The notes under the pieces: model-generated
Told to the model about the DNA's origin: nothing
What the model saw: the letters and a program-made list of their open reading frames with translations, nothing else
Databases searched by the model: none
In this document: positions 22,302-58,645 of the stretch, in pieces
How positions within the stretch are numbered: position 1 is the stretch's first letter
How the letters are laid out: every line of letters starts with the position of its first letter
Position numbers and translations under genes: made by a program
Assembly (NCBI GenBank): GCA_050250895.1
Contig: JBFWNU010000009.1
Coordinates: forward strand, 166,488-230,487
DNA from: Vulcanimicrobiota bacterium
GTDB taxonomy: Bacteria > Vulcanimicrobiota > Xenobia > Xenobiales > JADMJV01
Reading direction: 5' to 3'
DNA length: 64,000 nucleotides

Positions 22302-22439
22302 CTCGGAGAGGCACCTCGCTGACGCTCGGAGAGGGGAGCCTCGCTGACGCTCGGAGAGGGGAGCCTCGCTGACGCTCGGAGAGGGGAGCCTCGCTGACGC
22401 TCGGAGAGGGGAGCCTCGCTGACGCTCGGAGGGGGGAGC
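22302..22439. repeat. 25-bp tandem repeat CTCGGAGAGGGGAGCCTCGCTGACG (4 perfect copies, 1 variant, 1 partial)
   Basis: Head-to-tail copies at 22325, 22350, 22375 and 22400; one further copy near 23482-23512. Confidence 0.92.
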
Positions 22440-22463
22440 GAAGCTCGCTTTGGCTCGCTTCGA

Positions 22464-22820
22464 GGATTGGACAGGCGGCCTGCGGCCGCAACCCTTCGGG
22501 CGGCGAAGCCGCCTCATAATTGACGACGCGCAGCGTCGAGTACCTCAAGAACTCGAGCCGTAGCGCAGCGTAGGCTCGCTCCCAACTCGAGGCGCAGCCT
22601 CGCTCCCATCTCCGGGCGCAGCCGGCTCCCATCTCGATGACAAAGTCATCGCTCCCCTCTCGAGGCAACCCTTCGGGCGGCGAAGCCGCCTCATAATTGA
22701 CGACGCGCAGCGTCGAGTATCTCAAAAACTCGAGCCGTAGCGCAGCGTAGGCTCGCTCCCATCTCTGGGCCCCAGCCCAGCTCCCATCTCGATGACAAAG
22801 TCATCGCTCCCCTCTCCGAC
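22464..22820. repeat. mosaic hairpin array, family B (left block)
   Basis: ~97-nt core GCAACCCTTCGGGCGGCGAAGCCGCC...GACGACGCGCAGCGTCGAG...GTAGGCTCGCTCCCA at 22488 and 22665, plus short hairpin modules. Confidence 0.9.
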
Positions 22821-23134
22821 CTCGCCTCTGCCGGTGAGAGCTTCTCATAGAGACTGAGCAAGCCCCGGACGGCGCGGCCTACCGTAAACTGCTGTTGATG
22901 TAAGTAAGCAATTCCGGCGTGCTCCCGATCGCCAGCTGCCATGGCGAGGAAATCCTCGTCCTGCGTAAACAGAATCCGGCCTTGGAGCCTGGCAAATTCC
23001 AGCTGATCGATGTCGGTTGCACTGATTCGTCCGGCCTCGCCCGTTGTGAGGACGTCTATTCCTCTTCGACGAAGACCTCCGGCCACAGCCGGGTCGACCA
23101 TTTCGTCGAGATAGAACCGAGGTTGGTCAGGCAC
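22691..23134 (-). CDS. DUF5615/PIN-like toxin; C-terminus runs into repeat DNA
   Basis: RFYLDEMVD...LRRRGIDVLT...DIDQLEFA...RILFTQDEDF...HAGIA; GTG at 23134 overlaps the partner gene. Confidence 0.85.
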   Translation of the reverse strand: MPDQPRFYLDEMVDPAVAGGLRRRGIDVLTTGEAGRISATDIDQLEFARLQGRILFTQDEDFLAMAAGDREHAGIAYLHQQQFTVGRAVRGLLSLYEKLSPAEARSERGAMTLSSRWELGWGPEMGASLRCATARVFEILDAARRQL

Positions 23135-23408
23135 TTCGTGAGTCGGGCATCGCTTCTGGGCGAAGCTGGTCGGCCACGTCGAGACTGCGACGGATGTCCT
23201 CGCGAATCTCGTCAAGGTTGGCAAAATAGTATGCTAAGGCAGCGTGGACCTGACTCAGGTCAAGTCCATACATGTGCGCGATCTCGTCAGGGCTCTTGCC
23301 ATGTCTTTCGCTCATCAGCGCGACATCTAGCACTCGAATTCTGTGGCCCTTTATGCAAGGACGACCTCCACACACGCCGGGAGTCCTGGTGATAAACTCT
23401 GACAACAT
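23127..23408 (-). CDS. DUF433 antitoxin
   Basis: ITRTPGVCGGRPCIKGHRIRV...EIA..YGLDLSQVHAALAYY; ATG at 23408 lies 7 nt after TGc-TACAAT. Confidence 0.92.
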   Translation of the reverse strand: MLSEFITRTPGVCGGRPCIKGHRIRVLDVALMSERHGKSPDEIAHMYGLDLSQVHAALAYYFANLDEIREDIRRSLDVADQLRPEAMPDSRSA

Positions 23409-23459
23409 TAGGCCCATTGTAGCATAAGACGACTACCTCGCACCTGGCTCCGGGCAGGA

Positions 23460-24444
23460 GAGGGGAGCCGGCCTGTGGCCGGAGGGGGGAGCCTCGCTGA
23501 CGCTCGGAGAGGGGATTGGACAGGCGGCCTGCGGCCGCAACCCTTCGGGCGGCGAAGCCGCCTCATAATTGACGACGCGCAGCGTCGAGTACCTCAAAAA
23601 CTCGAGCCGTAGCGCAGCGTAGGCTCGCTCCCAACTCGAGGCGCAGCCTCGCTCCCATCTCTGGGCCCCAGCCCAGCTCCCTTCTCGATGACAACGTCAT
23701 CGCTCCCCTCTCGAGGCCGCAACCCTTCGGGCGGCGAAGCCGCCTCATAATTGACGACGCGCAGCGTCGAGTACCTCAAAAACTCGAGCCGTAGCGCAGC
23801 GTAGGCTCGCTCCCATCTCGAGGCGTAGCCTCGTTCCCATCTCGAGGCGTAGCCTCGTTCCCATCTCGAGGCGCAGCCTCGCTCCCATCTCGATGACAAA
23901 GTCATCGCTCCCCTCTCGAGGCAACCCTTCGGGCGGCGAAGCCGCCCCATATTGACGACGCGCAGCGTCGAGTACCTCAAAAACTCGAGCCGTAGCGCAG
24001 CGTAGGCTCGCTCCCAACTCGAGGCGCAGCCTCGCTCCCATCTCCGGGCGCAGCCGGCTCCCATCTCCGGGCGCAGCCGGCTCCCATCTCGATGACAAAG
24101 TCATCGCTCCCCTCTCGAGGCAACCCTTCGGGCGGCGAAGCCGCCTCATAATTGACGACGCGCAGCGTCGAGTATCTCAAAAACTCGAGCCGTAGCGCAG
24201 CGTAGGCTCGCTCCCATCTCGAGGCGCAGCCTCGCTCCCATCTCCGGGCGCAGCCGGCTCCCATCTCGATGACAAAGTCATCGCTCCCCTCTCGAGGCCG
24301 CAGGCCTCGTCGCTCCCATCTCGAGGCGTAGCCTCGTTCCCATCTCGATGACACAGTCATCGCTCCCATCTCTGGGCCCCAGCCCAGCTCCCTTCTCGAT
24401 GACAACGTCATCGCTCCCCTCTCGAGGCCGCAGGCCTCGCTCCC
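23460..24444. repeat. mosaic hairpin array, family B (right block)
   Basis: Core at 23537, 23719, 23921 and 24120, separated by shuffled 23-26 nt hairpin modules. Confidence 0.92.
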
Positions 24445-32149: not shown

Positions 32150-32460
32150 CAGTGGGCGCTTGAGAAGTAAAACCGCGGAGATAAGGAGGGCGCGGAGGGG
32201 GTCGCGCAGGGCGTGGGGTGAGCGTCCTCGCGGATTTTATGGGTTGGGGCGTGGGACTCGTGAGGGTCCAGCCTGATTGTGGTCAGCCGAACTGGCTGTG
32301 GATTCGGCAGTACGTGCCGAGGTGGGCGCTCGAAAATCAACCGCGGAGATAAGGAGGGCACGGAGAGGGTCGCGCAGGCGTGGGGTGAGCGTCCTCGCGA
32401 ATTTATGGGTAGGCGTGGGAGACTCGTGGGGGTCCAGCGAGATTGGCCAGCCGAACTGGG
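32150..32460. repeat. duplicated ~120-nt element beginning AACCGCGGAG (related to family A)
   Basis: AACCGCGGAGATAAGGAGGGC.CGGAG.GGGTCGCGCAGG..GTGGGGTGAGCGTCCTCGCG at ~32171 and ~32339. Confidence 0.85.
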
Positions 32461-32673
32461 CCGGGTGGGGTTGCCGAGTCGGGGCCGGTTGGCCCTGCTC
32501 GGCTGGCCGAGGCCCAGCGGCGCGGCGGGTTGGGTCATTCGGCAGCGTGGTACGCCGAATTCGGCAGTGTGTGCTGCCGAATCTCCGGCCTGGGCGAGGC
32601 CGGGCCGGCAGCCCGGACTTCCGCGCGGAAGTTGGCCCAGTTCGGCCGGCCGAGGCTCGTCGGCGCTCCGAGA

Positions 32674-33345
32674 ACGCCAGCCCTGGCGGCGCAGCCGCCT
32701 AGGGATTACGACGCGAAGCGTCGAGTGCCTCAAAAACTCGAAGCGAGCCAAAGCGAGCTTCGCCCCTCCCTCGCCGACAAAGTCGGCGCTCCCATCTCCC
32801 GGGCGAAGCCACGGGCTCCCCTCTCCGGCCGCAGGCCGGCTCCTTGGCGAGCCAAAGCGAGATAGCGCTCCGAGCACGCCAGCCCTGGCGGCGCAGCCGC
32901 CTAGGGATTACGACGCGAAGCGTCGAGTGCCTCAAAAACTCGAAGCGAGCCAAAGCGAGCTTCGCCCCTCCCTCGCCGACAAAGTCGGCGCTCCCATCTC
33001 CCGGGCGAAGCCACGGGCTCCCCTCTCCGGCCGCAGGCCGGCTCCTTGGCGAGCCAAAGCGAGATAGCGCTCCGAGCACGCCAGCCCTGGCGGCGCAGCC
33101 GCCTAAGGATTACGACGCGAAGCGTCGAGTGCCTCAAAAACTCGAAGCGAGCCAAAGCGAGCTTCGCTCCTTCCTCGCCGACAAAGTCGGCGCTCCCATC
33201 TCCCGGGCGAAGCCACGGGCTCCCCTCTCCGGCCGCAGGCCGGCTCCTTGGCGAGCCTAAGCGAGATAGCGCTCCCATCTCCCGGGCGAAGCCACGGGCT
33301 CCCCTCTCCGGCCGCAGGCCGGCTCCTTGGCGAGCCAAAGCGAGC
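32674..33345. repeat. 202-bp tandem hairpin repeat (3 copies plus partial), family B
   Basis: Units start at 32674, 32876 and 33078; each contains GGCGGCGCAGCCGCC, CGACGCGAAGCGTCGAG and CTCAAAAACTCG. Confidence 0.93.
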
Positions 33346-50369: not shown

Positions 50370-51325
50370 GCGTTTGTTGAAACCGCAGAGGCACCGAGGC
50401 GCTGAGGGGCGCGTCTAATTCGGAACGGGGCGATAGAATGAACCGCGGGGTTCCGCGGGGGACGCGGGGAGGTGAGTGAGGCGTCAGGGGTGGCGCCCTC
50501 GTTGAAGGGTTGCGCTTCTGGTTCGTGGCTTGGTTAATGAGACTATTTGGAGGTGCTTGGCGGTGAGGGTCCTTCGATTTTTTCCCAGCGAGGAATTCCC
50601 TTACGGCTCGCCCACCCTCTGGGCCTTCGCGTCTCTGGCGGTTTCACGTCACGTCGACCACGGCGACGTGTAAACCGCAGAGGCACCGAGGCGCTGAGAG
50701 GGCGTCTTGAACCGGAACGGGGGCGATAGAATGAACCGCGGGGTTCCGCGGAGGACGCGGGGAGGTGAGTGAGGCGTCAGGGGTAGGTGGCGCTTTGTGG
50801 AAGGGTTGCGCTTCTGGTTTGTGGCTTTGTTAATAAAATTATTTGGAGGTGCTTGGTCCTGGTCGGTGAGCGTCCTTCGATTTTCGATTTTGAGCCAGCG
50901 AGCGTACACTCCGGCGGGAATGGTTCCCCTTACCCCCACGGCTCGCCGACCCCTTTGCGCCTTCGCGTATCTCGACGGTTTTCACGTCGACCGTCGACTG
51001 CGGCGAGGCCGTGTGTGTGTATGCGTCTTCGATGCTCCGAAGTGGCCCAGACCCAGGACGTTCCCGTCGTCGTTGAGCCGTGAGCCCTCGAGCCGCTCGG
51101 CCTCACCAAGCCGCGGGCCGAACGTTCGCTAGCTATCGCCCGGCGGGTGTGCGCCGCACAAGCGGATTTGGCCACGCCCGATCGAAAGCTCAAGCTCCTC
51201 GGCCAAACGCCCACTCCTCCGCGGCCCTCCGCGGAACTCCGCGGTTTCCTCAATTCGGGCGCCCACCCTTCGAGGTACACAGCCCCCTCGGCGCCTTCGC
51301 GAACTCGGCGGTTTTCACAACGCGC
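50370..51325. mobile_element. gene-less composite of family A repeats (MITE/REPIN-like)
   Basis: AAACCGCAGAGGCACCGAGGCGCTGAG at 50380 and 50672; inverted copies at 50615-50647, 50950-50985 and 51284-51318; two homologous units of ~270-315 nt. Confidence 0.7.
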
Positions 51326-52523: not shown

Positions 52524-53597
52524 TTGGCTGATACCGTCGCCATCCTGGCGGGAGGCACCGGAACTCGCTTCTGGCCGGCTTCAAAGCAAGACAAACCCAA
52601 GCAGTTCCTGGCCCTGACCGGCCCCGAGACGATGCTTCAGCTGACTTACCAACGGGCCTGCGAACTGGTGGCCCCGGAGAGAATCCTGGTTTTGACCAAC
52701 CAGGACTATGTGCCCCTGGTGCGCGAGCAGCTTCCTCAGTTGCCCTCCAGCAACGTGGTGGGTGAGCCTTCGCGGCGGGATACGGCGGCGGCAGTCTGTC
52801 TGGCCAGTCTCATCGCCGAGCGTTGGGAGCCCGGGGGCGTGTTGGCCATCCTCACGGCCGACCACTGGATTCACCCCACCACCGCTTTTGTCCAGGCCAT
52901 CCGCTCGGCCAGCTGGGGGGCCCGCAAGTGGGAGTGCCTTTACACCTTCGGAGTGCGACCCGCCTATCCGGCCACCGGCTACGGCTATCTCGAGCTGGGT
53001 GAAGCGCTGGCTTCCGACAGCGACGAGCTCAAACATCACCGCCTGGCCGGTTTTAAAGAGAAGCCAAACCTGGCCACCGCGTCGAGCTACGTCGAATCTG
53101 GCCAATACTGCTGGAATAGCGGTATGTTCGTGTGGCGCACCAGCGATATCCTGGCTGAGTTTCGCAAGCATCTGCCGGCCCACCTCGAGCACCTCGAACC
53201 GATCATGCCGTTTTTGGCCACCTCAAAATTTGGTGCGGCTCTGTCGACAGCCTTCGACCCCTTGGAGCGGATCTCGGTGGATTATGCCATCCTGGAACGG
53301 GCCCGCCAGGTCCACACGGTGCTGGTCAACTTCGATTGGAGCGACCTGGGGGGCTGGTCGTCGCTGCGTCCGGTGCTGGCCTGCGACGCCTCTGGCAACG
53401 CCTATCGCGGCCGGATCTGTGCACTTCGAGCCGGCCAGAACATCGTCTTTTCGGAAGACGAAGACGAGCTGGTCGCCCTGATTGGCGTCTCCAATCTGGC
53501 CGTCGTGCGTAGTGAGAAAACCACTCTGGTGGCCTCGCTGGCCAACGTCGAAGAGGTCAAGCAACTGGTCGAGCGCCTGGAGTCACGCGATCGGTGA
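52524..53597 (+). CDS. manC: mannose-1-phosphate guanylyltransferase
   Basis: ILAGGTGTRFWPAS..KPKQFL, EPSRRDTA, TGYGY, FKEKP, WNSGMF, SVDYAILE, WSDLG. Confidence 0.95.
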   Translation: MADTVAILAGGTGTRFWPASKQDKPKQFLALTGPETMLQLTYQRACELVAPERILVLTNQDYVPLVREQLPQLPSSNVVGEPSRRDTAAAVCLASLIAERWEPGGVLAILTADHWIHPTTAFVQAIRSASWGARKWECLYTFGVRPAYPATGYGYLELGEALASDSDELKHHRLAGFKEKPNLATASSYVESGQYCWNSGMFVWRTSDILAEFRKHLPAHLEHLEPIMPFLATSKFGAALSTAFDPLERISVDYAILERARQVHTVLVNFDWSDLGGWSSLRPVLACDASGNAYRGRICALRAGQNIVFSEDEDELVALIGVSNLAVVRSEKTTLVASLANVEEVKQLVERLESRDR

Positions 53598-54961
53598 AGC
53601 CTGCTTGCTTCAAAACCTACGACATCCGTGGGCGAGTTCCATCCGAGTTCAACCAGCCTCTGGCCCAGCGCGTAGGCCGGGCCTTTGCCCGCCTGCTGAG
53701 CCCCACTCAGGTGGCCGTCGGCTGGGATGCGCGCCTCTCGAGCCCTGAGCTGGCCGAGGCCGTGACCGCCGGCTTGCGCTCGCAGGGCGTGAACGTGCTC
53801 AAACTCGGTCTGTGCGGAACCGAGACCGTCTATTTCGCGGTTCACAGCCTGAGCTTGGGCGGCGGCGTCATGGTCACCGCCAGCCACAACCCGGCCGACT
53901 ACAACGGCCTCAAGTTTGTTGGTCCCAGGGCGGTGCCGCTGAGCAACCAGCAGTTCGAGCAGCTGGCCGCAGCCACTCGGCAGGAATGGCCCGACACGAA
54001 CCGGGGCGGGGTGGAAGAACGCGATATCACCGACGCTTTCCTGGACCGACTGGTCGAACTCTTCGCCCCGGCCAGCCTGGGCGCCTGGAGAATCGTGGCC
54101 GACGCTGGCAACGGCGCCATCGGTCCCACCCTTTGTCACCTGGCCAAGCGCTATCCCGACCTTGAACTACTGGTCCTCCACGGTCAACCCGATGGCACGT
54201 TTCCCAACGGCGTGCCCAACCCGCTCTTGCCCGAAAACCGCGCCGCCACCGCCGCCGCCGTGCGCGAGCACCAGGCCGAGCTGGGGGTGGCCTGGGACGG
54301 CGATTTCGACCGCTGCTTTCTCTTCGACCACCGAGGAGAATTCGTCGACAACTATTACCTTCTGGCCGCCCTGGCCGGCCATTATCTCGAGCGCGAACCG
54401 GGCGGAATCATCGTCCACGACCCCCGCCTGACCTGGCACACCATCGAAGCCGTCACCCGGTTGGGTGGAACGCCGCGACTCAGTCGCACCGGGCACGCCT
54501 TCGTCAAGGCCGCCATGCGCGAGAGCGAGGCCATCTACGGAGCCGAGATGTCAGGCCATCACTACTTTCGCGACTTCGGCTACTGCGACTCGGGGCTGTT
54601 GCCTTTTCTGGCGACCCTGCAGATGCTGCACCGCCGGGGACGTAGCCTGGCCGACCTTTTGGACGGGGGCCGCGCAAGATTCCCTATCAGTGGCGAGATC
54701 AACCGCGAGGTAGCCGACTCCGAAGCCGTGCTGGCCGCGGCCGCGACCGAGTTCGGGCCTCAGGCCCTGCGCCGTTGCGACCTGGACGGTCTGAGCCTGG
54801 ACTTCGCCGATTGGCGCTTCAACCTGCGGCGCTCCAACACCGAACCCCTCATCCGTCTTAACGTCGAAAGCCGTGGGGACGCCGACCTGGTGGAGCGCAT
54901 GACGCAGAGGTTGCTGGCGCTGGTGGAGGGCGTCGGAAAGAATAAACCGCAGAGATTATGA
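53594..54961 (+). CDS. manB: phosphomannomutase
   Basis: FKTYDIRG, TASHNP, DGDFDR, EMSGH, FNLRRSNTEP. Confidence 0.95.
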   Translation: MKPACFKTYDIRGRVPSEFNQPLAQRVGRAFARLLSPTQVAVGWDARLSSPELAEAVTAGLRSQGVNVLKLGLCGTETVYFAVHSLSLGGGVMVTASHNPADYNGLKFVGPRAVPLSNQQFEQLAAATRQEWPDTNRGGVEERDITDAFLDRLVELFAPASLGAWRIVADAGNGAIGPTLCHLAKRYPDLELLVLHGQPDGTFPNGVPNPLLPENRAATAAAVREHQAELGVAWDGDFDRCFLFDHRGEFVDNYYLLAALAGHYLEREPGGIIVHDPRLTWHTIEAVTRLGGTPRLSRTGHAFVKAAMRESEAIYGAEMSGHHYFRDFGYCDSGLLPFLATLQMLHRRGRSLADLLDGGRARFPISGEINREVADSEAVLAAAATEFGPQALRRCDLDGLSLDFADWRFNLRRSNTEPLIRLNVESRGDADLVERMTQRLLALVEGVGKNKPQRL

Positions 54962-55511
54962 GGCGCTGAGGGGTGGAGTGAACTTCGGTGTCGTCGTTCT
55001 ATAGTTGAGGCTTGTAGTTATTGACTACGCGCTTGAGGCCCCGGCGCAGCGTGGGTTCGTGAAAATTCAGGAGTAGGCCAACCGAGCGTCCCGACAACTT
55101 CAAATAGGATAACAATTGAGCTTGATGAACGGCGTTCAGAGACTCGACGGCCTTCACTTCCACAACCAAAACATCGTCCACCAAAAGATCGATTCGATAA
55201 CCCGCGTCCAATTCAACGCCTTTATAAACTATTGGCAGCGGCACCTGTCTCGATGTTTGATGGCCCCTCAGAGAAAGTTCATAAGCCAGGCACTTTTCAT
55301 AGGCAGACTCTAGCAATCCCGGTCCCAGTTCTCGATGGACTTCAATGGCCCCACCGATCACGCTTTGAGTAATTTCATCGATGTCTCTCCTCTTGTTCAC
55401 GCCCCCAGCCTAACGGACCGTAGCGCGAGGAGCAGTGACCATCGACACCGTTCGGGCACCCAACCTTCCAGGTGCTCCGCCCCCCTCAGCGCCTCTGCGT
55501 CTCGGCGGTTT
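54944..55511. mobile_element. inverted-repeat-bounded cassette carrying the GxxExxY gene
   Basis: Left AAACCGCAGAGATTATGAGGCGCTGAGGGGTGGAG (54944-54978); right end (55475-55511) reverse-complements to AAACCGCCGAGACGCAGAGGCGCTGAGGGGGGCGGAG. Confidence 0.65.
54999..55400 (-). CDS. GxxExxY protein (PD-(D/E)XK nuclease superfamily)
   Basis: VHRELGPGLLESAYEKCL, YRIDLLV...VEVKAV, QLLSYLK..G..VGLLLNF; lower GC than its neighbours. Confidence 0.95.
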   Translation of the reverse strand: MNKRRDIDEITQSVIGGAIEVHRELGPGLLESAYEKCLAYELSLRGHQTSRQVPLPIVYKGVELDAGYRIDLLVDDVLVVEVKAVESLNAVHQAQLLSYLKLSGRSVGLLLNFHEPTLRRGLKRVVNNYKPQL

Positions 55512-55542
55512 CCCCATCGAGCGCTCACCCCGACGCGCCCAC

Positions 55543-56565
<1,023 letters not shown>

Positions 56566-56704: not shown

Positions 56705-57030
56705 TTACTCGGAGGTTGCGCCGCCGCCCAACTCTTCCGGTCGCAGTCCCGTCATCCTGAGAGCTTCGTCTAAGGCCATTCCAGAGTCGACCAGCTTCTG
56801 GACCGTCTCGCGTAGCGCCAGCAATCGGCCCTCCTCGCGACCCTCCTTGAATCCTCTCTCGCGCCCGAGCAGCCTGGCCTCCTCCAGTTCGGTGGCAGCA
56901 TCGCACATCGCCCTGTGACGCGCTGCCATGATGTTTCGGACCTGCTCACTCGCGCTCGCTGAGCGCTTCGTTGTAAAGGCCACTTCAACGCCTCCTCTTC
57001 CTATCAGTGACTCCGGAATGGAGCCTTCTC
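56705..57030 (-). pseudogene. duplicated C-terminal segment of an Rpn-family protein
   Basis: SASASEQVR.IM.ARH.AMCDAAT.LEEAR...EGREEGRLLALRETVQKLVDSGMALDEALR.TGL is nearly identical to the tail of 57055..57550. Confidence 0.75.
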
Positions 57031-57054
57031 CGACTAGGGGATCCGACACTGGCT

Positions 57055-57550
57055 CTATCCGGGGCACCCAGAAGTTTCGCCGCCGCCCAAGTCCTCCGGT
57101 CGCAGTCCGGTGATCCTGAGAGCTTCGTCCAAGGCCATTCCAGAATCGACCAGCTTCTGGACCGTCTCGCGTAGCGCCAGCAATCGACCCTCCTCGCGGC
57201 CCTCCTCGCGGCCCTCCTCGCGCCCGCCCAGCCTGGCCTCCTCCAGTTGGGTGGCAGCATCGCACATCGCTTTGTGGCGCGCTTCCATGATCTCTCGAAC
57301 TTGCTCACTCGCGCTCGCCGAGCGCATCGTTCTCAGGGCCACTTCAATGCCCTCCTCTTCCTTGAGTGATTTCGGGATGGGAGCCTCCTCCCGAGTATAA
57401 AACTCGCCGAATTTCAAGACGTGCAACCACTTCTCGAAGGGCGACCTCAGACTGCGGGGCTTGTCCCTGCGAAACTTGGCTAGCTCGATGAAGTGGAACT
57501 CTAGTATATCAGACAAGACCAGGTCATGTTCGGGGTCGTGGAGTCGAAGG
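57055..57550 (-). pseudogene. Rpn / PD-(D/E)XK_2 family protein, C-terminal half only
   Basis: LEFHFIELAKF...EKWLHVL...GREEGREEG...TGL; the N-terminal catalytic part and a native start are absent. Confidence 0.8.
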
Positions 57551-58645
57551 CGTGTCACGCGTGGCCGACAGTTGGCACAGCTGAGGGTGGGGCGCGGCCC
57601 GCAAACCGGGCAGCGCCCAGCGCCGCAGTCGCTCGACCAGCCTGGGCCAACGAAGGTCACGCCGCCCCTGGCCGTCGCGGCGGATCATGAGCTGGACGTG
57701 GCGCAACTTGGTGCGCAAAGGGTCGGCCAGCCGATACTCCTGGCGAATCAGATAGTCCAGACTGAAATCTTGGCTCAGCACCCGCTGCAACATCTCGTAG
57801 AGGGTGTCCCTGCCGTCACGAACGGCCGAGAAGACCAGAAAGATGCAGACTCCCTCGGGTGCCAGGCGGGTCTCGAGGCCCTCGACCGCGGCCCGGGTCA
57901 ACTCGGGCGGTCCCACCGCGAACCGCATGGCCGGGTCGGCCAGGTCGGGCGGCAGGGCGGGAGGGTTGCCGATGATGAGTTGCCATTCCCCCTCGGCCTT
58001 CTGGTAGAGGTCGCTGACCTCGAATCTGGCCGAACTGTGGTTGAGTCGGGCGTTGGAGTAGGCCAGGGCGATGGCGTCGGTGTTGATGTCGAGTCCCACG
58101 ACTTCGGCGAAGCCCGGGGGCAGGGTCAAGCCCACCACCCCGCAGCCGCAGCAAAGGTCCAGCGCTCTACCGCGACCCCGGGGGAACTGTTCGAGAGCCA
58201 GCCGGCGCAAGTGAGCCGAATCATCGCCGAGATAGACGAACTCACCGGGAGAGCGTCCGGGGATCGAGCTGAGTATGTAGCGCCCGCCCACGCAGGTGAG
58301 TTGCACGATGGCCCGCACCCCCTCGGGCACCACCTCGAGAAAAGCCTCGGGAACCTGGCTACAGGCTTCGGGCTCGAGGGTGTGATGGAGGAAAAAGAGG
58401 CGAAAGAGAGTCCAGGCGGCCGGCTGCCGCTGAGAAAACTGACGATAAAGACGCTCGGGGAAGGCCACCATCGAGAGAGGCTCGACGCCCCCCTGGCGCC
58501 GCTCCCACCAGGTCCGCATCTCATGGATGGGATAGATCTTGCGGGTAGAATAGGCCGGCAACCCTTCGGTCAAGCCATAGCGACTCTCATCGAGCACCCC
58601 CCTCAGTTGCTCGAGCGCATCACCCCCAAAATCTCCCCAACTCAA
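57524..58645 (-). CDS. HemK/MTS-like class I methyltransferase
   Basis: VYLGDDS, ALDLCCGCG, GLDIN, SDLY, IIGNPP. Confidence 0.85.
   Translation of the reverse strand: MSWGDFGGDALEQLRGVLDESRYGLTEGLPAYSTRKIYPIHEMRTWWERRQGGVEPLSMVAFPERLYRQFSQRQPAAWTLFRLFFLHHTLEPEACSQVPEAFLEVVPEGVRAIVQLTCVGGRYILSSIPGRSPGEFVYLGDDSAHLRRLALEQFPRGRGRALDLCCGCGVVGLTLPPGFAEVVGLDINTDAIALAYSNARLNHSSARFEVSDLYQKAEGEWQLIIGNPPALPPDLADPAMRFAVGPPELTRAAVEGLETRLAPEGVCIFLVFSAVRDGRDTLYEMLQRVLSQDFSLDYLIRQEYRLADPLRTKLRHVQLMIRRDGQGRRDLRWPRLVERLRRWALPGLRAAPHPQLCQLSATRDTPSTPRPRT

Follow-up and report, generated by a model that had tools for sequence, protein, structure and literature searches.

Introduction

Repetitive extragenic palindromic (REP) sequences and their REP-associated tyrosine transposases (RAYTs) are the closest described systems to the locus reported here. 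As defined in two papers (PMC3116915, PMC3733652), REPs are palindromes of 20-40 nt with a GTAG or CGTC tag, which RAYTs of the HUH/Y1, IS200-like type accompany. One group of REPs, the CGTC-tagged ones, is reported to be without a dedicated transposase (Di Nocera et al. 2013, PMC3733652). In this study, we analysed a stretch of 64,000 nucleotides (the window) from a Vulcanimicrobiota bacterium (contig JBFWNU010000009.1, positions 166,488 to 230,487, assembly GCA_050250895.1). It carries a small gene of the GxxExxY family (PF13366, PDDEXK_3) between two inverted arrays of short tandem units, hereafter called arms; gene and arms together are called the cassette. An earlier note on this stretch had read the gene and its repeat as an enzyme/repeat pair resembling RAYTs and their REP doublets (REPINs). 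We compared the cassette with the rest of its genome and with homologous loci in other phyla.

Other proteins and elements are also relevant. TnsA of Tn7 and the Rpn/PDDEXK_2 'nuclease family transposase' are PD-(D/E)XK proteins tied to DNA rearrangement, and the intervening sequences (IVSs) of 23S rRNA encode a four-helix-bundle protein of the TIGR02436 family. For GxxExxY itself, one paper reports the domain beside a reverse transcriptase, and another lists the function of the family as unknown, with multiple transfers. A literature search that left subscription journals, supplements and unindexed articles outside its reach found no description of a GxxExxY/arm association, of a link between REPINs and PDDEXK proteins, or of the repeat strings.

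Results

Inverted arms flank the GxxExxY gene

The repeat search in the window showed that the GxxExxY gene was flanked by inverted arms of 30 nt, which were 83% complementary and 508 nt apart. Aligned in inverted orientation, the two 150-nt flanks gave a best score of 35, which none of 1000 shuffles reached (shuffle maximum 33). This was consistent with the imperfect inverted repeats described in the earlier note. When a 402-bp pseudo-gene was placed at random within the window, 6 of 1000 placements matched the score. A degenerate 30-mer pattern with at most three mismatches had four matches in the window (50380, 50672, 54944 and, on the minus strand, 55482) and none in 100 shuffles. Together with about 30 nt on either side, the right arm matched no fewer than 10 further copies in the genome, with 78-86% identity. 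Pfam confirmed the convergent manB and gmd genes around the cassette. The open reading frame (ORF) of manB ended at 54961, inside the left arm, so the repeat supplied its stop codon as the note had said. An inner inverted pair of 8 nt (54986-54993 and 55443-55450), also described there, was present; since about 0.3 such pairs are expected by chance between flanks of about 150 nt, it was given no weight.

The GC content was 0.49-0.52 across the GxxExxY gene and 0.62-0.68 in the surroundings, with 0.63-0.66 in the flanks, which agreed with the lower GC noticed before. The closest relatives of the gene were 59-64% identical and were labelled as other phyla. The gene was compositionally foreign, and the GC drop together with the nearest relatives in other phyla suggested transfer. 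The only promoter-like site detected was downstream of the gene, with none upstream, and the cassette gave no terminator-like site. An Rfam scan of the window region gave no match.

Arms recur around homologues in many phyla

The homologue search confirmed 292 relatives, and the best 80 were analysed. They were mostly from metagenome-assembled genomes (MAGs), with 17 loci from one MAG. Their labels were Anaerolineae, Deltaproteobacteria, Planctomycetota, Acidobacteriota, Cyanobacteria, Bacteroidota, Ignavibacteriota, Gammaproteobacteria, Verrucomicrobiota and others. One locus per assembly was kept, which gave 61 assemblies; two were dropped for short flanks, leaving 59, and controls were placed 800 nt away. 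A flanking inverted repeat that scored above all 100 shuffles was present in 45 of the 59 assemblies, compared with 3 of 111 controls. An arm with an exact 5-mer repeated at a spacing of 7-10 nt was present in 31 of those 45 and in none of the controls. A stricter detector, applied to each locus, found 34 of 77 loci and 0 of 147 controls. By record labels, arm-flanked GxxExxY genes occurred in at least eight phylum-level groups. The association between gene and inverted repeats suspected in the earlier note was therefore found well beyond this genome.

The arms were made of about three tandem units of 7-9 nt and usually abutted the ORF, often within 0-30 nt. Their consensus was ACC-(A/G)C-N-(A/G)AG followed by two or three further units, and the subfamily unit was ACC-RC-N-RAG followed by two CRCNRAG units. 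Unit variants included CACAGAG, CACGAAG, CACCAAG, CGCAGAG, CGCCGAG and CACGGAG. More distant homologues had the same design with other units, namely GGAGAT, GGGAAT and GGGGAC types in relatives of this genome. Another clade had GTCTGAAC followed by GGAT units and kept the inverted tandem design. Paralogues within one genome carried different units (loci L096 and L101 of genome G018; also genome G048), which indicated that the arm type belongs to the cassette and not to the host.

Differences between the two arms were counted at 44 loci. There were 62 transitions giving G:U pairs in the sense RNA, 72 giving them in the antisense RNA, and 113 transversions. As read from the aligned loci, mismatches frequently fell in the spacers or on that position of a unit which is free to vary. 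This pattern fits arrays of a recognition motif better than an RNA stem under selection for pairing. Rfam, applied to 20 loci, gave just sub-threshold matches to generic hairpins (miRNA precursors) and one tRNA.

The genes next to the cassettes were also sampled. The 24 ORFs beside 16 loci were diverse housekeeping genes without transposases, so insertion was not locus-specific, and a conserved insertion locus was rejected. The upstream neighbour was co-directional at 36 of 50 loci; this is roughly usual for adjacent bacterial genes, and no conclusion was drawn from it. Homologues were found in 8 of 72,556 plasmid records, and the phage records contained no GxxExxY homologue. Two loci in MAGs labelled Anaerolineales and Planctomycetota (L003 and L004) had near-identical arms, the same gene distances and the same coordinates of the neighbouring ORFs. 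Either a larger block was transferred very recently, or this likeness reflects a problem of binning or labelling.

Gene-less arms in this genome

The genome is 9.50 Mb in 17 contigs, with about 63% GC and 99.6% completeness. A profile search found the PF13366 gene as a single copy, and the whole genome had no match to Y1_Tnp/RAYT (PF01797). The arm of this genome was an array of three CGCNGAG-like units of about 8 nt with AAACC at its head. AAACCGCNGAG occurred 133 times. The strict three-unit pattern occurred 39 times and its reversed control 0 times, and the generic pattern, ACCRCNRAG plus two CRCNRAG units, occurred 66 times with 0 for the control. The arm profile gave 54 arms at E ≤ 0.01 and 88 at E ≤ 1, and the repeat family continued for about 20 nt past the arm.

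Nine gene-less convergent arm pairs had 170-296 nt between the arms. Divergent pairs were merely 12-22 nt apart, which indicated tandem elements. The gene-less elements were about 250-350 bp long and frequently tandem. In the window, the arm profile recovered the gene-less copies that the earlier note had placed at 50.4-51.3 kb, with six arms between 50374 and 51320. The note had also listed relatives of the repeat near 32171 and 32339. A related repeat was indeed present there; it was, however, of a distinct type, two tandem units without an inverted partner. Its conserved head of about 55 nt consisted of a stop-rich prefix followed by ACCGCGGAG, TCAGGAG and GCACGGAG units, and the ACCGCGGAG head was common to the two related repeat types. 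For the repeat at 32160-32500, neither an inverted partner nor an associated gene was found.

None of the frames in 11 arm-bounded stretches of the genome was GxxExxY-like, as judged by eye only and without a family scan. When the cassette was compared with the genome by BLAST, the arm region was the sole match. Clusters of arms were observed at contig ends (C8:199-682, C5:3804-4163 and C14:59634-59700) and also at contig starts of genomes G004 and G018. With arm clusters at many contig ends, the repeats appear to break assemblies, and arm counts in draft genomes are therefore lower bounds.

Arm populations and the gene in other genomes

The generic ACC-type arm pattern, with its reversed control, and the PF13366 profile were applied to 301 genomes of the phylum. 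The pattern was found in 23 of the 301, with the reversed control almost nowhere, and PF13366 was found in 18. Both were present in 9 genomes, the pattern only in 14, the gene only in 9 and neither in 269. Thus, ACC-type arms accompanied the gene in 9 of the 18 genomes that have it and occurred in 14 of the 283 that lack it, and the correlation between gene and repeat that follows from the earlier note was observed. The odds ratio was 19 with a Fisher p of 5e-07, which overstates the case since the genomes are related and not phylogenetically independent.

Five genomes of other phyla (G302-G306) were picked for ACC-type arms at their gene. The numbers of arms and PF13366 hits were 60 and 2 in G302, 87 and 2 in G303, 128 and 2 in G304, 55 and 4 in G305, and 179 and 5 in G306, and the control was 0 in each. 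In G305, 26 of the 55 arms formed 13 tight plus/minus doublets.

Genome G048 had 521 arms of at least four types and five PF13366 hits, comprising two full-length genes and three fragments. Among the 100 arms listed, the types numbered 39, 29, 20 and 12. One gene had CGC-type arms directly on both sides, and the other had a ACCGCAAAG-type arm at its 3' end only. Six hairpins of one arm type were about 70 nt long and consisted of an arm, an AT-rich loop of 15-27 nt and an arm, with the left/right asymmetry kept from copy to copy. These six hairpins showed no target duplication and no terminal inverted repeat (TIR) outside the arms.

The protein is a minimal, probably active PD-(D/E)XK nuclease

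The protein matched TIGR04256 (GxxExxY) with 147.6 bits (cut-off 35, E = 1.8e-43) over profile positions 1-116 of 116, and PF13366 with 145.4 bits (cut-off 22, E = 1.2e-42). The motif G28-E31-Y34 was present together with D71, E81 and K83, and the PD-(D/E)XK residues E31, D71, E81 and K83 were intact. These four residues were invariant in 46 aligned sequences, as were H22, G26, Y34, C37, E41, P56, Y59, R69, Y99, F113, G121 and R124. G28 was conserved in at least 90% of the 46, and the mean column identity was 61%.

The AlphaFold2 model had a predicted local distance difference test score (pLDDT) of 93 and a predicted template modelling score (pTM) of 0.87, and it showed a restriction-endonuclease-like alpha/beta fold. 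Foldseek gave weak matches, with a best E value of 0.013, to Cas4 SSO0001, Hjc, splicing endonucleases and lambda exonuclease. A wide structural search gave Z values up to 7.8, mostly to restriction-endonuclease-like proteins (3ijm and Cas4 4ic1 with Z = 7.8, CinB, R.SwaI, and Hjc with Z = 6.0), and XisH-family structures were among the matches. These middling Z values allowed no closer family to be named. A sequence search of solved structures gave 0 hits at E ≤ 1. PADLOC reported weak Cas4 similarity alone (E = 0.002), and PHROGs gave weak hits of unknown function. The model and the conserved residues indicated that the protein is a minimal PD-(D/E)XK nuclease without a close characterised relative and that it is probably active.

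Evidence on movement

One cassette, in a genome other than that of the window, had a syntenic empty counterpart. The interval between an HdrA-like and an MvhD-like gene was 15 nt in G043 and about 510 nt in G048, where an arm-bounded cassette lay between them. In G048 the extra DNA comprised the arm-gene-arm unit and no more than about 20 nt to either side of it. The flanking genes of the two genomes were 70% identical in nucleotides, which was too divergent for a footprint. Among Limnospira-like relatives, the presence or absence of hairpins was compared, but synteny broke at the arm and no footprint was readable.

A deltaproteobacterial MAG carried at least 17 near-identical elements of about 590 bp (L005, L006, L009, L011-L015, L019, L023, L024, L026-L028, L031, L035, L041). 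In these elements, the arm-gene-arm core was nested inside an outer TIR of 23 nt. The ends were sharp, and 16 of 17 aligned copies kept the left end. The three loci read in detail (L011-L013) had 9-bp target duplications.

Parallel arrays around TIGR02436 genes

Three TIGR02436 genes were found in the genome (C2:653025-653345, C8:174186-174503 and C6:48743-49060), each between inverted unit arrays. Units of the type GCTCCnnTCTC alternated with small hairpins upstream, and their complement was downstream. Such units formed 62 clusters genome-wide, most of them far from any TIGR02436 gene, and the window itself contained arrays at 22329-24413 and 33192-33298. These genes and their arrays look like a parallel gene-plus-repeat system.

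Other features of the window

The features of the cassette, its host genes and the related repeats are listed in Table 1. The 3' end of manB (54925-54961) was rewritten by the arm; likewise, a TsaE-like ORF ran through an arm in a Limnospira-labelled genome (L154:2029-2076). Just past gmd, the window contained a fragment from the C-terminal end of a PDDEXK_2 'PD-(D/E)XK nuclease family transposase' at 57055-57660 on the minus strand (profile positions 130-229 of 229, E = 8.7e-12). It was adjoined by a paralogous, partly duplicated ORF with EEGR repeats at 56705-57265, also on the minus strand.

Table 1. Coordinates of the cassette, its neighbouring genes and related repeats in the window.
Feature	Position	Strand	Remarks
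GxxExxY / PDDEXK_3 gene	54999-55400	-	133 amino acids; profile matches, catalytic residues, sole genomic copy
Left arm	54944-54973	+	Three ~8-nt units, middle one degenerate; includes manB stop codon 54959-54961
Right arm	55482-55511	-	Minus strand ACC...GAG; typical of the genome's arm family; arm profile E = 1e-05
Extended repeat homology round right arm	55452-55542		Other genomic copies 78-86% identical
manB, phosphomannomutase domains I-IV	53594-54961	+	Pfam; last codons and stop repeat-derived
gmd, GDP-mannose 4,6-dehydratase	55543-56529	-	Pfam; upstream of cassette, co-directional with GxxExxY gene
Gene-less element 1	50374-50646		Arm (+) 50374-50411, arm (-) 50612-50646, ~200 nt between; arm profile
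Gene-less element 2, tandem copy of element 1	50668-50986		Arm (+) 50668-50702, arm (-) 50947-50986; arm profile
Two more arms	51214-51320	-	CCGCGG-hairpin variant 51214-51253 (E = 0.041); best-scoring arm of the window 51281-51320 (E = 3.3e-09)
Related but distinct repeat	32160-32500	+	Two direct ~170-bp units with arm-like heads; ~30 conserved genomic copies

Discussion

The simplest account of these results is a two-part system, in which a compact unit of arm, gene and inverted arm coexists with a much larger population of gene-less arms, hairpins and arm pairs of about 250-350 bp. Based on this account, we propose that the cassette is the gene-bearing member of a RAYT/REPIN-like pair and that its PD-(D/E)XK nuclease acts on its own arms to mobilise or maintain them, a proposal to which we give an even chance. 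The nuclease would bind the tandem units in arms of its own type, probably in a state in which a pair of inverted arms has folded or been drawn close, and would cut at the outer boundaries of the arms. DNA bounded by arms, whether or not it holds the gene, could then be excised, and copies of it could enter new intergenic sites. Replication or repair functions of the host might assist the copying or joining; this chemistry is what we infer. The enzyme/repeat pair of the earlier note was partly supported, since the majority of the computational checks it suggested turned out in its favour, while we only infer that the protein recognises and propagates the repeat.

A wider claim is put forward tentatively, with our judgement leaning slightly against it. 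GxxExxY might be a second, non-HUH class of enzyme that founds or maintains palindromic repeat populations, with units co-evolving with each gene copy, and the IVS protein genes may follow the same principle. If this were true, small genes bracketed by self-specific unit arrays would be a general and overlooked type of bacterial mobile DNA. PF13366/GxxExxY is a large and widely transferred family, to which the link with arms gives a testable function. Short palindromic repeats are abundant in many bacterial genomes, and a set of orphan ones would gain a candidate enzyme. A hydrolytic PD-(D/E)XK nuclease would then be one more among the few proteins that maintain non-autonomous repeat populations. 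There is also a practical side, since arms appear to break assemblies, with many of them at contig ends, and rewrite the 3' ends of neighbouring genes.

Several observations weigh against the proposed action of the nuclease on its arms. PD-(D/E)XK enzymes are hydrolytic and are not known to have strand-transfer chemistry, so other factors would be needed. The unit sequences vary greatly while the protein is about 61% identical on average, which would demand a quickly shifting specificity. The literal motif AACCGCNGAG was not conserved; the architecture of about three tandem units, inverted on two sides, was conserved instead. At the locus itself, the left arm at 54944 was degenerate and was missed by the arm profile (nhmmer) even at E ≤ 10. 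The empty manB-gmd site suggested earlier was not found, since manB and gmd were not neighbours in the 30 relatives but matched separate contigs or places some 31-33 kb from each other. In G048, the arm type most frequent among the 100 arms listed (39 ACCACGAAG-like arms) was without a cognate intact gene in the assembly. Arms were present in 14 of 283 genomes without any PF13366 hit (17 in G034, 8 in G103 and 4 in G033), and those of G034 were solo or short hairpins next to ordinary genes. Conversely, some genomes had few spare arms or none despite their genes: G031 had 4 genes and 7 arms, and G045, G054 and G057 had 9, 6 and 3 gene hits with 21, 11 and 17 arms. Finally, the MAG elements are real transposition with the signature of a DDE enzyme on the outer ends, in which the gene looks like a passenger. 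With its outer TIR and 9-bp duplications, this case supports a cargo role of the gene as much as the proposed one.

A cargo role would mean that the arms bound a miniature transposon on which an unrelated transposase, of the host or of an insertion sequence (IS), acts in trans, that GxxExxY is carried along, for example as an addiction or defence nuclease, and that the gene-less copies are miniature inverted-repeat transposable elements (MITEs). The MAG elements and the arms in genomes without the gene point in this direction, as does the inability of a hydrolytic nuclease to join DNA by itself. However, GxxExxY was the sole component seen travelling with the arms across phyla, the arm type differed between paralogues of one genome, and the six G048 hairpins had neither target duplication nor TIR outside the arms. 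The sampled neighbours were housekeeping genes and not transposases, no RAYT was found in this genome, and the weak Cas4 similarity was all that PADLOC gave. We therefore regard the cargo role as unlikely, though still a serious contender. Free-standing homing is a further alternative, in which GxxExxY would be an endonuclease that cuts empty hairpins and is copied in by repair, so that the gene-less hairpins would be its targets and not its dependants. Small PD-(D/E)XK homing endonucleases exist, the gene sits at the position of the loop of the hairpin element, and horizontal spread is suggested by its GC content and by closest relatives that belong to other phyla. Yet genomes in which hairpins number tens to hundreds have just 1-5 genes, paralogues have different arms, and the sole genome with many identical gene copies owes them to the outer TIR and target-duplication element. 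Arms of 26-30 nt are also generally considered short for recombinational repair, and homing appears very unlikely.

The arms might instead act mainly at the level of RNA or the host. REP-like hairpins could terminate, insulate or stabilise transcripts, or could pair the 5' and 3' ends of the cassette transcript so that it is processed in the manner of rRNA intervening sequences, and the link between gene and arms would then reflect shared tolerance inside operons, not recognition of a substrate by an enzyme. Cassettes and hairpins do lie in tight intergenic spaces of operons, an arm supplies the stop codon of the neighbour in two cases, and the upstream arm was purine-rich on the sense strand at 40 of 44 loci. 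The absence of promoter-like sites upstream of the gene (one downstream) and of terminator-like sites in the cassette, and the unit arrays around the three genes of the IVS-protein family, would also agree with this. Against it, G:U-compatible changes were not in excess on the sense strand (62 compared with 72), with 113 transversions, and unit cores were better kept than the complementarity between arms. No Rfam family was matched, and the hundreds of dispersed copies and the cassette-specific unit types would be left unexplained; we consider an action mainly on RNA or host quite unlikely. Chance, by which an abundant intergenic repeat happened to flank an unrelated small gene, might be suggested by the abundance of the repeat in the genome and by the 6 of 1000 random window placements that reached the same score. 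It was refuted by the recurrence of the arrangement in 45 of 59 assemblies of many phyla against 3 of 111 controls, and is almost certainly wrong.

Compared with MITEs and ISs of the DDE type, the gene-less copies are likewise short non-coding elements with terminal inverted repeats, and one MAG cassette is nested in an element with a TIR and a 9-bp duplication. In contrast, the six G048 hairpins are without target duplication, no DDE transposase was linked to the arms, and the ends are arrays of tandem units. TnsA, Rpn/PDDEXK_2 (PF12784) and XisH are of the same nuclease superfamily, and a part in moving DNA is proposed for them as well; a PDDEXK_2 fragment lies 1.5 kb away in the window. They are nevertheless other families, with likeness at the fold level only (Z ≤ 7.8), and we know of none with a dependent repeat population. 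The IVSs of 23S rRNA also contain a small, widely transferred ORF bracketed by inverted sequence; the copies in this genome differ in fold, in repeat (GAGAnGGAGC units with small hairpins) and in the polarity of the purine-rich strand relative to the gene, which is opposite. CGTC-tagged REPs are similar as abundant palindromic extragenic repeats without a known RAYT partner, whereas their stems of 8-9 bp and loops of 4-5 nt, as given in PMC3733652, differ from the much longer arms with tandem units.

The comparison with RAYT/REPIN systems is the closest one. The enzyme here is a PF13366 (PD-(D/E)XK) protein and not an HUH/Y1 IS200-like one, with no PF01797 in this genome. The arms are 26-45 nt long with about three tandem units and an ACC start, unlike the tagged REP palindrome. 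The gene looks horizontally acquired and is often multi-copy, with 1-9 hits per genome elsewhere and a single one here. Since the enzyme is not HUH/Y1 and there is neither a GTAG or CGTC tag nor a short stem, the cassette is not a member of the RAYT/REPIN family. The organisation is nevertheless the same in that a low-copy gene is flanked by short repeats that are also dispersed without the gene in extragenic space. In both, the repeats form inverted doublets or hairpins with no evident target duplication, and a genome can house several repeat families that each have a gene of their own.

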